64,000 bases of DNA from an uncultured Clostridia bacterium (GTDB lineage: Bacteria > Bacillota > Clostridia > CAKSNL01 > HGM11501), in assembly GCA_934476235.1 (NCBI GenBank), contig CAKSNL010000004.1:110582-174581 (forward strand). Reading direction: 5' to 3'. Position numbers and translations under genes: made by a program. This document shows positions 60,963-64,000 of the stretch, in pieces. A model generated the notes under the pieces. The model ran no database searches, was not told where the DNA came from, and worked only from the letters and a program-made list of their open reading frames with translations. Numbering within the stretch: the stretch's first letter is position 1; every line of letters starts with the position of its first letter.

Positions 60963-61958
60963 ATGTATAATGCAAGTGAAAAACGTTACTCAAAGATGAA
61001 ATATGCCCACTCCGGCAAAAGCGGACTTAAATTGCCGAGGGTATCGCTCGGGCTGTGGCATAATTTCGGAAATACCGCTTCTTATGATAATATGAAGGCG
61101 CTGTGCACAACGGCGTTTGACAATGGTATAACCCATTTTGACCTCGCGAATAACTACGGACCCGAACCGGGCAGAGCGGAGATCAATTTCGGGAAAATTC
61201 TGAAGGACAATTTCCTTCCCTACCGTGATGAAATGATAATAAGCACAAAAGCCGGATACGAGATGTGGGACGGGCCCTACGGAAACTGGGGAAGCCGCAA
61301 GTACCTGATCGCCAGCCTTGACCAGAGCTTAAAGAGAATGGACGTTGATTATGTGGATATTTTCTATCACCACAGACCGGACCCGGAAACTCCGCTTGAG
61401 GAAACGATGGGCGCCCTTGACTATGCCGTTAAGAGCGGAAAGGCGCTTTACGCCGGACTTTCCAACTATAACGGAGAGATGATGGAGCGAGCTGCGGAGA
61501 TTCTTTCAGAGCTCAAATGCCCGTTTGTTATAAATCAGAACCGCTATTCGATTTTTGACCGCGCGATTGAGCAGAACGGGCTGAAAAGGAGCGCGGAAAA
61601 GAACGGCAAGGGCATAATCGCATTCAGCCCCCTTGCGCAGGGCACACTTACGGATCGATATCTGAACGGTATCCCGGAGGATAGCCGGATAAAGACGGAC
61701 GGCAGATTTTTAAAGGCTTCCATTTTGACCGAGGAGAGACTATCGGAAATTAAACGGCTTAACGAGCTGGCACACCGCCGCGGGCAGACGCTGGCGGAAA
61801 TGGCGCTCGCCTGGGTGCTTAAGGATAACGCGGTGACAAGCGTTCTTATCGGTGCGTCAAAGCCCGAGCAGATACTTGACAATATCAAGGCGATAAATAA
61901 CACCAACTTTACAGAGGCTGAGCTCCGCGAGATCGATTCGATTTGTGGAATTATATGA
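60963..61958 (+). CDS. aldo/keto reductase (YghZ/L-glyceraldehyde-3-phosphate reductase-like)
   Basis: AKR motifs GLWHNFG, HFDLANNYG and YVDIFYHHRPD. Confidence 0.85.
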   Translation: MYNASEKRYSKMKYAHSGKSGLKLPRVSLGLWHNFGNTASYDNMKALCTTAFDNGITHFDLANNYGPEPGRAEINFGKILKDNFLPYRDEMIISTKAGYEMWDGPYGNWGSRKYLIASLDQSLKRMDVDYVDIFYHHRPDPETPLEETMGALDYAVKSGKALYAGLSNYNGEMMERAAEILSELKCPFVINQNRYSIFDRAIEQNGLKRSAEKNGKGIIAFSPLAQGTLTDRYLNGIPEDSRIKTDGRFLKASILTEERLSEIKRLNELAHRRGQTLAEMALAWVLKDNAVTSVLIGASKPEQILDNIKAINNTNFTEAELREIDSICGII

Positions 61959-61961
61959 TAA

Positions 61962-61998
61962 AACACCCCGTGATGCAATGCATCACGGGGCTTTTTTA
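61962..61998. terminator. bidirectional terminator
   Basis: CCCCGTGATGCAT/TGCATCACGGGG followed by CTTTTTT. Confidence 0.75.
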
Positions 61999-62001
61999 AG
62001 T

Positions 62002-62220
62002 TTACAGCCTTGCCAAAATTTCCATTCGACGGGCTTTCTGCTCGTCCTCGCTGATATATCCGAGCTCGTAATCCTCGTTTATCAGCTCAAGCTCTTCCTT
62101 TAATGTCAGCGTTCCCTTCTTCTTTTTCCTCCGCAGCGTGAAGTTTATTTGATTTTCTGTTTTTATCTGAGGTTTTATTGTTGTCAGTAACGTTTTACCC
62201 TCTGTCCGGAAGCGCGGCAA
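62002..62220 (-). pseudogene. SHOCT-domain ORF lacking its own ATG/RBS; probably the C-terminal part of a frameshifted PLDc_N-SHOCT gene
   Basis: LKEELELINEDYELGYISEDEQKARRMEIL is SHOCT-like. Reachable only from a TTG with no SD, one frame away from the upstream ORF's stop. Confidence 0.35.
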
Positions 62221-62377
62221 CCAAAATCATGCCAAATATTCCGGTAAAAAATACCCAAAAGCCGTAGCCGTTATCATAGCCTTTGCTTTCTGCAACGCGG
62301 GCAAAATCTATAGCCAGCGCTATCCATAGTATCCAACCTATTATTCCTATAACCCATAATACACCGTTCATTTCCAT
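62195..62377 (-). CDS. PLDc_N-like small membrane protein
   Basis: 60 aa, two TM helices (LWVIGIIGWILWIALAIDFAR...GYGFWVFFTGIFGMILVAALP); strong AGGAGGAAG RBS. Confidence 0.6.
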   Translation of the reverse strand: MEMNGVLWVIGIIGWILWIALAIDFARVAESKGYDNGYGFWVFFTGIFGMILVAALPDRG

Positions 62378-62405
62378 TTTTTCTTCCTCCTAAAAATTAA
62401 ATTTT

Positions 62406-62722
62406 ACCACGGAATATACATTACGTGGTCTGGAAAAAAATCAACAAGGATTTTTTTCGGACCGGTTTACGAAAAATATTCAAGTTTTTCGTAAACTATG
62501 TATACAGGAACCGGCAAATGCCGGGTCCGTTCATGCAAAAGACCACGAAAAGAAGACCGATGAAAGCATTTTTTCATCATCGGTCTTAAAACCATGCAAA
62601 AAATAATTTTTGCCGATAAATATTGACATACTTTTCCAAAAGTAGTATAATAAAAGTACCCTAATTTCGCTTTTCGAGGAAAAGGGCTGCATAAAACTAC
62701 CACGTAATGTATATTATGTGGC
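62406..62722. other. candidate invertible DNA switch (inverton): 24-bp inverted repeats flanking a 269-bp promoter-bearing segment
   Basis: IR-L 62406-62429 ACCACGGAATATACATTACGTGGT and IR-R 62699-62722 ACCACGTAATGTATATTATGTGGC are inverted, 21/24 identical. Each has 9-bp arms around a TGTATA-type spacer, like a tyrosine-recombinase core site. Confidence 0.55.
62623..62651 (+). promoter_or_regulatory. consensus sigma-A promoter inside the invertible segment
   Basis: TTGACA, 17-bp spacer, TATAAT. It currently points toward the recombinase gene; after inversion it would read toward the PLDc_N gene. Confidence 0.6.
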
Positions 62723-62731
62723 TTTTTTCTT

Positions 62732-63565
62732 TTATTCCCGCAAAAAGCCGAGCATTTCGATTCTGGAGCGGTGAATCTCCGAAGACTCCGCGGTGTAAAT
62801 GCGTGTGGTGTTCATGCTGACGTGCCCCAGAAGCTCCGAAAGGCGAAGTAAGTCCTTATGCACCTTGTAGTACGTCCGCGCGAAAAGATGGCGGAGGTTG
62901 TGCGGGAACACCTTCTTTTCGGAAACGTTCGCCTTTTTGTAAAGCGCCTTCATGGAGCGCCAGATATAGAACCTGTCAAGCGGTTTCCCCGTTCTCGTTA
63001 TGAACACAGGACCGCTTTTTATATTGTTCTTTTTGGCGTATTTGATCAGCATTTTGCAGAGCTTTCCCGGAAGCAGTACCGTGCGGACTCTGCCCTTTAG
63101 AGCGACCGTCGCGCGGCGCAGCATCAGCGCCTCGCACGTGATAAAGCGGATCTCGGAAACGCGCAGCCCGCAGGAGCATGCCGCCTGCATGAGGAGATAC
63201 AGCCGCTCGCTCTTTTCCTTCGCAGCGGACAAAAGGCGGTTGTACTCCCCCGCCGTCATCTCCCGCTCCTTATCGGCAAAGCTGCTCCGGGAAAATGTAA
63301 GGCTCTTTAATTTTAAATCGTGCCGCCCGCAGAACGTGAAAAATGAGTTAAGCCCCGCAACCGCGGCGTTCACGCTCGCCGGTGCGCGCGTTGCCTTCAT
63401 GCGCTCTTTGTAGCCGACCGCGAGCTCCTTTGTCACCCTTCTCCAGGAGAGGCACTCGGCAAAAAGCCGCACGTCGCGGGCGTATTTTTCAGCGGTAGCC
63501 CTCTCCTTCTCGCGTTTAATAAGGTCGTTTTTGAAATTTTTTATTTTTTCTTCTGTGATAAACAT
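62732..63565 (-). CDS. tyrosine-type site-specific recombinase/integrase
   Basis: Phage-integrase fold: N-terminal SAM-like domain, catalytic R...HxLRH...Y (LRHLFARTY...TTRIYT); GGGGTGAGAGA RBS. Confidence 0.85.
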   Translation of the reverse strand: MFITEEKIKNFKNDLIKREKERATAEKYARDVRLFAECLSWRRVTKELAVGYKERMKATRAPASVNAAVAGLNSFFTFCGRHDLKLKSLTFSRSSFADKEREMTAGEYNRLLSAAKEKSERLYLLMQAACSCGLRVSEIRFITCEALMLRRATVALKGRVRTVLLPGKLCKMLIKYAKKNNIKSGPVFITRTGKPLDRFYIWRSMKALYKKANVSEKKVFPHNLRHLFARTYYKVHKDLLRLSELLGHVSMNTTRIYTAESSEIHRSRIEMLGFLRE

Positions 63566-63639
63566 TCTCTCACCCCGTGAACCATTTTACCACAGATGCG
63601 ACCGACATCGAAAGTCAGTGACGGGCGGGTTGCGTGAAT

Positions 63640-63885
63640 ACGGTGTGTGCGCCGAAAAATCCTCCCGGTTTTTATTGCATAAAAACCACCCTCCTTTAGC
63701 AAGGAGGGCATTTAAAGGCTCCCTTGCTTAAAGGGAGCTGGGTTTTCCGGAGGGAAACTCTGAGGGATTTTTCAATCATTTCCGCTGCGGCTCTCCTCGC
63801 GCCTTTAGTTCTTGATGAGTCCTCCGGACTCGAATTCATTGCCTCAGCGCCGCTTCGCTGCCTTTAGCTCTCGAGGGCTTTAAAT
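63640..63885. repeat. modular palindromic interspersed repeats, locus C
   Basis: X module 63655-72, Y module 63690-63725 and Z module 63787-63880, near-identical to 56805-56895. Confidence 0.75.
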
Positions 63886-64000
63886 TCCGCTCACTGCTTT
63901 TTTTCTGTGCATACGCCAAGGACTTGCACCCTTGCCAAATGACAAAAAAATAAAGAAAAAATCTTAACGAAGAGCAAAAAAACAAAGGCGGAGTGTTTAA

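Follow-up and report, generated by a model that had tools for sequence, protein, structure and literature searches.

Between positions 62406 and 62722 of a 64,000-nucleotide stretch from an uncultured Clostridia bacterium (contig CAKSNL010000004.1; hereafter "the window," numbered from its first letter), a tyrosine recombinase gene and a small membrane-protein gene are separated by a short, promoter-bearing segment that lies between two inverted sites. An earlier note, made from the letters of the window, had proposed that this segment is an invertible promoter driven by the recombinase and that it was sequenced in the OFF orientation for the small gene. Our analysis supports that proposal in three ways: 63 of 80 homologous loci share the architecture, the promoters of these loci occupy mirror-image positions, and one pair of loci (L038 and L043) carries the same segment flipped. 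We consider it highly probable that the window copy is a working ON/OFF switch, sequenced OFF, for a gene encoding a 60-amino-acid (aa) membrane protein.

Sites, recombinase and promoter of the window locus

The two sites are 24-bp inverted repeats (IRs), one distal to the recombinase gene (IR-L; ACCACGGAA-TATACA-TTACGTGGT, 62406–62429) and one proximal to it (IR-R; ACCACGTAA-TGTATA-TTATGTGGC, 62699–62722), and they bracket a candidate invertible segment of 269 bp (62430–62698), with 293 bp from site start to site start. Set against the consensus derived from related loci (A-CCACATAA-TNNNNA-TTATGTGG-T; see below), IR-R reads A-CCACGTAA-TGTATA-TTATGTGG-C and IR-L reads A-CCACGGAA-TATACA-TTACGTGG-T. 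A repeat search returned the pair as 23 nt with 91% complementarity, 269 nt apart. Each site is itself palindromic, and the pair also scores as a direct repeat (83%); the inverted orientation is set solely by the 6-bp spacers (TATACA versus TGTATA), which are reverse complements of one another. The pattern CCACRTAA-N6-TTAYGTGG, with up to 2 mismatches allowed, has exactly 2 matches in the 64-kb window, i.e., these two sites, as compared with a mean of 0.03 matches in shuffled sequence, where 0 of 100 shuffles had at least two. Sequence, repeat search and shuffle control thus confirm the paired inverted sites around 269 bp that had been described earlier. A flipped copy is predicted to carry two new junctions, one joining CGGAATATACATTACGTGGT to AGTTTTATGCAGCCC and the other joining GATTTTTTTCCAG to ACCACGTAATGTATATTATGTGGC.

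Only 9 nt (62723–62731; previously given as 10 bp) separate IR-R from the stop codon of the recombinase gene (62732–63565, minus strand), which otherwise stands where the earlier note had placed it. Its 277-aa product, an Xer-like tyrosine recombinase (Pfam Phage_integrase, E = 3e-25) with a weak Pfam match to a SAM-like domain at its N-terminus, is the presumed invertase of the adjacent switch. The open reading frame (ORF) is intact and encodes the complete catalytic set R-K-H-R-H-Y, as residues R135, K157, H222, R225, H248 and Y257 are invariant in an alignment of 16 sequences (the recombinase and 15 homologues). Homologues are numerous (>7600 proteins at E ≤ 1e-20), mostly ~278–280 aa long and ~55% identical, and come from metagenome-assembled genomes (MAGs) of Clostridia, Oscillospiraceae and Lachnospiraceae. 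One 430-aa call on a 1.8-kb contig (P0002), 93% identical to the recombinase, also carries fused acyl-ACP thioesterase domains, probably through an error of gene calling or assembly.

Within the segment lies a sigma-70-type promoter, TTGACA-17-TATAAT (62623–62651, plus strand), which agrees with the consensus at 12 of 12 positions, as had been claimed, and which faces the recombinase gene. Inversion would bring this promoter to ~62477–62505 on the minus strand, by computation ~93 nt upstream of the ATG at 62377 that opens the small gene (62195–62377, minus strand; a predicted two-helix membrane protein of no known family, called as a gene in public assemblies). The small gene, just outside the segment, appears to be promoterless: its leader (62378–62405, minus strand) measures 28 nt from IR-L to the ATG, includes the ribosome-binding site (RBS) GGAGG at 62386–62390, and leaves no room for a promoter of its own. 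The earlier note had argued the same from a 28-bp interval that it took to run from IR-L to the RBS. Leader and distal site are 90–91% conserved in three related loci (L003, L087 and L088), even where the downstream gene differs.

It had also been suggested that, in the sequenced orientation, the promoter fires antisense into the recombinase gene. The direction is correct, but a long run into the gene is improbable. Just outside IR-R is a T-run, TTTTTTCTT (62723–62731, plus strand), which together with the IR-R palindrome resembles a terminator for OFF transcripts: a terminator scan picked out 62700–62721 followed by CTTTTTTCTT, and RNA of 62658–62740 is predicted to fold at −20.3 kcal/mol (z = −3.2). 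Because this structure is terminator-like, and because the same asymmetry is found family-wide, the OFF-state transcript probably stops before it runs far into the recombinase gene. As a further feature of this end of the segment, the inner flank (GAGGAAAAGGGCTGCATAA) can pair with the outer arm and the T-run (TTATGTGGCTTTTTTCTTT; 62678–62731), and only in the OFF state does this lengthen the IR-R hairpin, to ~19 bp; where the OFF promoter transcript ends, and likewise the recombinase mRNA, would therefore depend on orientation.

The conserved internal element of the segment is a palindrome that the earlier note did not list, AAGACCGATGA-N13-TCATCGGTCTT (62553–62587). It is terminator-like on the minus (i.e., recombinase-sense) strand, where its RNA folds at −20.4 kcal/mol and is followed by a U-rich tail (CUUUUCGUGG), compared with −15.4 kcal/mol on the plus strand. 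A scan for hairpins with loops of ≤8 nt misses it (its loop is 13–16 nt), and a motif search recovers it. We read the palindrome as a putative terminator that would shield the downstream gene from recombinase read-through; because its sequence is conserved and helically phased (see below), it may also be an architectural element for looping, or a protein-binding element. Two other features had been offered as possible accessory-protein sites, namely a hairpin with 11-bp arms (62467–62497) and CCGGCAAATGCCGG (62511–62524). Both the hairpin and the latter motif (CCGGCAaaTGCCGG, CCGGCA..TGCCGG) are present in the window, but the portion of the segment in which they lie has no homology in a sister clade whose recombinase is 75% identical, and we rejected both as conserved elements. 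An Rfam scan of 61900–64000 gave sub-threshold chance matches only.

Related loci, orientation states and competing explanations

A scan of one genome per species yielded 80 family loci. In 63 of these, a site of the consensus given above occurs 8–30 nt past the recombinase stop codon, and a second site follows the first, nearly always at 208–305 bp (330, 354 and 417 bp in three outliers); the other loci are mostly contigs that end just past the recombinase gene. Wherever a locus has at least two sites (63 of 63), reverse-complementing the first spacer gives the second, and this holds across 39 distinct spacers whose four central bases are otherwise free. Such covariation is a requirement of strand exchange by tyrosine recombinases and is not predicted by operators, terminators or att remnants. 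Because the central spacer bases vary freely, the match of TGTATA to the spacer of Escherichia coli dif, which the earlier note had remarked upon, is coincidental; the dif-like core seen in the site logo (inverted arms ending CATAA/TTATG around a 6-bp spacer) does reflect an Xer-like enzyme.

The geometry of the loci is equally regular. Site spacings cluster at ~208, 220, 230, 240, 251, 262, 273, 284, 294 and 304 bp, i.e., with a period of ~10.5–10.8 bp (Rayleigh R = 0.75, 56 non-redundant loci, p ~ 3e-14), and 0 of 10000 spacing sets jittered by ±5 bp reached this R. The 293-bp spacing of the window falls on this helical lattice. Integral helical turns between sites would be expected if synapsis occurs in a small, torsionally stiff loop. 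The internal palindrome recurs as AGACCAATG-N~15-CATTGGTCT in 46 of 63 segments, where compensatory changes keep its symmetry and it is usually lengthened by an A-tract at one end and a T-tract at the other; relative to either core site, its centre is offset from helical phase by about half a turn (R ~ 0.69). T-runs directed outward (at least 5 T in the first 8 nt) adjoin 44 of 56 proximal sites versus 6 of 56 distal sites (p = 1.4e-8). Nearly every segment holds a near-consensus TTGACA-17-TATAAT promoter at the same relative position, pointing outward through the nearby site and mostly 24–39 nt from it, and nearly all loci have a co-directional gene after the distal site.

Both orientations of this promoter are present in the family: it faces the recombinase, as in the window, in 41 non-redundant loci, and faces the downstream gene from the mirror-image position in 14. 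The clean case is that of L038 and L043, from two MAGs, whose 800-bp flanks align on the same strand at 99.6 and 99.9% identity and whose 251-bp interior aligns, at 99.6% identity, in reverse orientation only, with breakpoints exactly at the sites. The two loci capture both states of a natural inversion. Flipping is also seen between more diverged loci (L012/L014, L007/L010, L057/L060 and L014/L033). It is mainly these related loci that support the claim that the sequenced orientation of the window is OFF for the small gene.

For the window copy, we infer the following course of events. The locus would act as a self-contained phase-variation switch in which the recombinase binds both 24-bp core sites (two 8–9-bp arms and a 6-bp spacer each) and exchanges strands inside the spacers, inverting the 269-bp segment; the promoter that turns with it would be the sole one that the gene for the 60-aa membrane protein can use. 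When the switch is OFF, this promoter would face the recombinase gene from its 3′ side, the short RNA made would probably be stopped at once by the IR-R hairpin and T-run, and read-through from the recombinase gene would be stopped at the internal palindromic terminator. In the ON state, the promoter would stand upstream of the small gene and transcription would pass IR-L, which has no adjacent T-run. The integral-turn spacing suggests that the sites synapse only within a small, tightly constrained loop of DNA—one that the half-turn-out-of-phase palindrome, or a factor bound to it, may help to form.

How well this account applies to the window itself depends on its closest relatives. Of these, L001 is identical to the window; L002, L083, L085 and L086 represent the same or closely related organisms; and L003, L087 and L088 form the sister clade, with 75% recombinase identity and the same architecture. 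Flipped copies were sought by exact-protein look-ups of the recombinase, its 96% relative and the 60-aa protein, and by two metagenome scans: that with the promoter pattern gave no match, and that with an orientation-neutral distal-junction pattern gave two sister-clade contigs, both OFF. The related genomes in which the earlier note would have looked for both orientations thus hold both in the wider family, and OFF only at the window locus and in its clade. Separately, four independent contigs break off inside the segment (L002 and L083 at their ends, L085 and L087 at their starts), and L002 and L085, which come from one sample (ERZ27287325), overlap by 88 nt and were not joined. These breaks may stem from mixed orientations, AT-rich hairpins or strain variation; as the break points misfit a simple inversion-bubble (mixed-orientation de Bruijn) model, we counted them neither for nor against inversion.

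Several observations weigh against a working switch in the window. No copy among the eight assemblies of the clade (L001, L002, L083, L085, L086, L003, L087 and L088) is flipped; the −10 hexamer lies 48 nt from the site, as against mostly 24–39 nt in the family; and the outer arm of IR-L (TTCCGTGG) is 2 positions off the family consensus (TTATGTGG), both nearly invariant elsewhere, a departure that the sister clade also keeps. Promoter activity, termination and the pairing of this recombinase with these sites are, moreover, predictions. The orientation, distance and arm are what a decayed or locked switch would show, i.e., one of inverton-family descent in which inversion is absent or negligible within the clade, the promoter is fixed toward the recombinase, and the small gene is permanently silent or otherwise expressed. 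We regard this as the main residual alternative and as unlikely. The recombinase ORF is intact with all its catalytic residues, the spacing is still on the helical lattice, and the family itself is biased ~3:1 toward OFF. In addition, the deviant arms, spacer, leader and palindrome are conserved across 25% recombinase divergence, which argues for selection and continued function rather than decay. Specifically, the sister clade keeps the window's spacer, its distal outer arm and its RBS leader, and the inner arms have changed together (TTCTGTGG/CCACAGAA in the sister clade versus TTACGTGG/CCACGTAA in the window), staying identical to each other within each clade.

Far less probable is an explanation in which the recombinase is a housekeeping single-Xer enzyme (like XerS or XerH) that resolves dimers at dif or serves an integrated Xer-dependent element, and in which the second site is an att remnant, as the earlier note had allowed. 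The CATAA-N6-TTATG core and TGTATA spacer do resemble dif, the genes for XerS and XerH adjoin their dif sites, the nearest solved structures are Xer proteins, and the best NCBIfam profiles are those of XerA (113.7 bits), XerD (102.1) and XerC (96.7), with XerS at 53. Yet these scores fall far below every Xer equivalog cut-off (220, 329.6, 335 and 267, respectively), and the sites always come as two, inverted and 208–305 bp apart in nearly all loci. Rather than a single dif per replicon, there are several copies per genome with differing spacers: MAG JAZTXF has 3 loci (L030/L047/L066), and JBGVEN (L032/L059), JAZNEB (L015/L023) and JAFVTI (L062/L072) have 2 each. Finally, inverted sites cannot excise or resolve DNA, and a flipped segment has been found; paired inverted sites, multiple copies and the flipped segment together contradict the att-remnant idea.

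Just as improbable is the view that no recombination occurs and that the palindromes are operators of a dimeric regulator, or terminators flanking a small-RNA gene: each site is indeed palindromic, and IR-R with its T-run is terminator-like, such that the promoter could give a discrete ~65–75-nt RNA, but this view leaves the reverse-complement free spacers (63/63), the mirror-image promoters and the L038/L043 inversion unexplained, and no Rfam family scored above threshold. As a sole explanation, it is contradicted by these data; a stable OFF-state small RNA with a function of its own could coexist with inversion.

Controlled genes and variant loci

The small gene had been labeled PLDc_N/SHOCT, a label for which we find no support. 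The 60-aa ORF, an overlapping 72-aa ORF and a hypothetical fusion of the two have no PLDc_N or SHOCT match in Pfam, even at E ≤ 10, and neither ORF matches any Pfam or NCBIfam family above threshold. A 74-aa homologue of the 60-aa protein follows the switch in L087 and L088 (a different gene does so in L003), and this homologue has no SHOCT tail. The 72-aa ORF (62002–62220, minus strand; TTG start) has a weak, sub-cut-off Pfam match to GvpG, is not called as a gene in public assemblies and, if real, would be the second gene of the controlled unit. Read in a different frame, it overlaps the end of the 60-aa gene (62195–62220); shifting the frame by 1 nt near 62200 would join the two. Because the 74-aa homologue ends soon after a shared ...LPDRG motif, the 60-aa gene is probably complete and the 72-aa ORF of doubtful reality. 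Beyond these, a predicted bidirectional intrinsic terminator (61960–61997; 12-bp and 11-bp stems, 8 GC pairs, T-runs on both strands) ends the controlled unit as well as a convergent aldo/keto reductase gene.

Elsewhere in the family, the downstream genes encode TetR regulators (10 of 57), YpsA-SLOG proteins (5) and SPFH/zinc-ribbon proteins, in addition to LRR/BspA, SLH, collagen-like, subtilase, Wzy_C, acyltransferase and GGDEF proteins and TIR and AAA_21 defence-like proteins—a range typical of phase-variable cargo. Many of the TetR-type genes (~185–198 aa; e.g., in L008, L009, L012, L014, L015, L019, L025 and L033) have a TGTAAC-N-GTTACA-type palindrome in the interval that separates them from the distal site, which suggests an autoregulated repressor under phase-variable control, i.e., a switchable regulon.

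Some loci elaborate on the two-site plan. A third core site, with its spacer oriented as its neighbor's, stands in tandem at one end, 32–33 bp away (~3 helical turns; 102 bp in L082): the distal end in L010, L014, L015, L019, L025, L033, L042 and L075, and the proximal end in L020, L071 and L082. The end that bears the tandem site varies as inversion via an outer or inner partner would produce, and a direct tandem pair could also delete 33 bp. In L044 (2910–3978), it is the recombinase gene that stands between the sites, in a segment of 1025 bp whose far end holds the promoter; here, the invertase gene would flip along with the promoter. In many loci, the interval from the −10 hexamer to the core site nearest the promoter holds a TTATGTA motif, 10–25 nt inward of that site. 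The motif resembles a core-site arm (ATTATGTGG) and does not occur in the window's clade; it may be an additional half-site (cf. the third FRT element) or a leader feature.

In the MAGs with several loci, the spacer differs from copy to copy, except in JAFVTI (TTCGCA in both), and differing spacers would prevent cross-recombination between the switches of one MAG. The recombinase with paired reverse-complement-spacer sites also occurs in predicted viral or proviral IMG/VR contigs (L089–L091, L093, L094, L096, L099, L100 and L104); this may mean that some switches govern genes of phages or prophages, or that the proviruses were imprecisely delimited.

Known switches and meaning for gut Clostridia

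The likeness to the fim switch (fimS with FimB/FimE) that the earlier note had drawn is borne out functionally, though enzyme and site types differ. Both systems have a ~300-bp promoter segment between short inverted repeats, a recombinase gene directly upstream, and a controlled gene without its own promoter directly downstream; in both, the small loop implies architectural help, and the recombinase transcript of the window locus, like that of fim, would end at a point set by orientation. However, the window enzyme is not of the FimB/FimE family (26.1 and 24.2 bits against PRK09870 and PRK09871, where the cut-offs are 221 and 222) and is instead Xer-like, with its SAM-like N-terminal domain. 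Its sites are full palindromic Xer-type cores, as opposed to the 9-bp IRs of fim, and there is one recombinase where fim has two. The window locus is not known to have IHF or Lrp sites; it has the conserved AGACCAATG...CATTGGTCT palindrome instead.

Within the Clostridia, the RecV switches of Clostridioides difficile (cwpV, flgB, cmrRST) are short invertible regulatory segments that are acted on by a tyrosine recombinase and give ON/OFF heterogeneity. They share host class, segment type and enzyme class with the window locus; they differ in that RecV acts in trans on several unlinked switches with different IRs and that some of these switches use a terminator or leader in place of an internal promoter, whereas every switch of the present family comes with a recombinase of its own, encoded in cis, and a site of stereotyped form. 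Single-recombinase Xer systems (XerS/difSL, XerH/difH, XerA/dif) are closest in fold and domain organization and share the CATAA-6 bp-TTATG core and the placement of a site beside the gene, but resolve at a single site, while the window family inverts between two, occurs in multiple copies per genome with diverse spacers, and scores below the Xer cut-offs. The invertible promoters of Bacteroides (Mpi, Tsr) likewise control surface, regulatory and defence genes of gut bacteria by promoter inversion. They have the promoter type of another phylum, other IR motifs and often a master invertase in trans (Mpi being a serine recombinase), in contrast to the canonical sigma-70 promoter and dedicated, cis-encoded enzyme seen here.

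The closest published counterpart is inverton group 139 of a PhaseFinderDC survey of a defined gut community, which comprises 33 invertons, 32 of them in Clostridia, from 17 strains (Microbiome 2025, PMC11892184). Nearly every member has a tyrosine recombinase nearby; of all groups, its link to such a recombinase group (invertase group 35) is the strongest, and its orientation was seen to shift, at the level of reads, during culture passaging (PMC11892184). The window family fits the attributes of this group (Clostridia host, tyrosine recombinase within ≤5 kb, IRs of ~13–25 bp, segment of ~200–230 bp), and two published examples, with IRs of ≤25 bp, have start-to-start distances of 231 and 241 bp by the coordinates in PMC11892184, i.e., on the 230 and 240 peaks of our lattice. 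The window family is probably inverton group 139/invertase group 35, likened by host, linkage and spacing rather than by IR motif. The window locus thus joins a known kind of switch, and its family has probably already been catalogued. The text of PMC11892184 is without site anatomy, phasing, an internal element or terminator design, and the window organism belongs to an uncultured MAG lineage outside that defined community. Our literature searches found no paper on the site consensus, spacer covariation, phasing rule, internal palindrome or terminator asymmetry; the 2025 survey was the only related work.

Promoter-inversion phase variation is well understood in E. coli, Bacteroides and C. difficile, and hardly characterized in the dominant gut Clostridia (Oscillospiraceae, Lachnospiraceae and uncultured relatives). 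For the window organism, the consequence would be modest, i.e., stochastic ON/OFF expression of a 60-aa membrane protein without an assigned function; the OFF state may additionally make a discrete small RNA. The design rules of the family are of greater interest than the single locus and are directly testable. It is plausible, if somewhat short of probable, that these loci make up a very large and mechanistically undissected family of modular switch cassettes, each with a dedicated Xer-like invertase, free-spacer and possibly orthogonal core sites, a helical-turn spacing rule, a half-turn palindrome and a one-sided terminator. The free spacer bases may make paralogous switches orthogonal, and the presence of the cassette before unrelated genes (TetR, surface, defence-type) and in predicted phage contigs suggests that it may be a portable regulatory module.

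The window locus offers a defined recombinase–site pair with a clear consensus, a testable spacing rule and a candidate accessory element, and the cassette, being compact and available with many natural spacers, could serve as a source of orthogonal genetic switches for Firmicutes. More broadly, the site rules provide a simple route to thousands of such switches in gut Clostridia and to scoring their ON/OFF states from assemblies and metagenomes.

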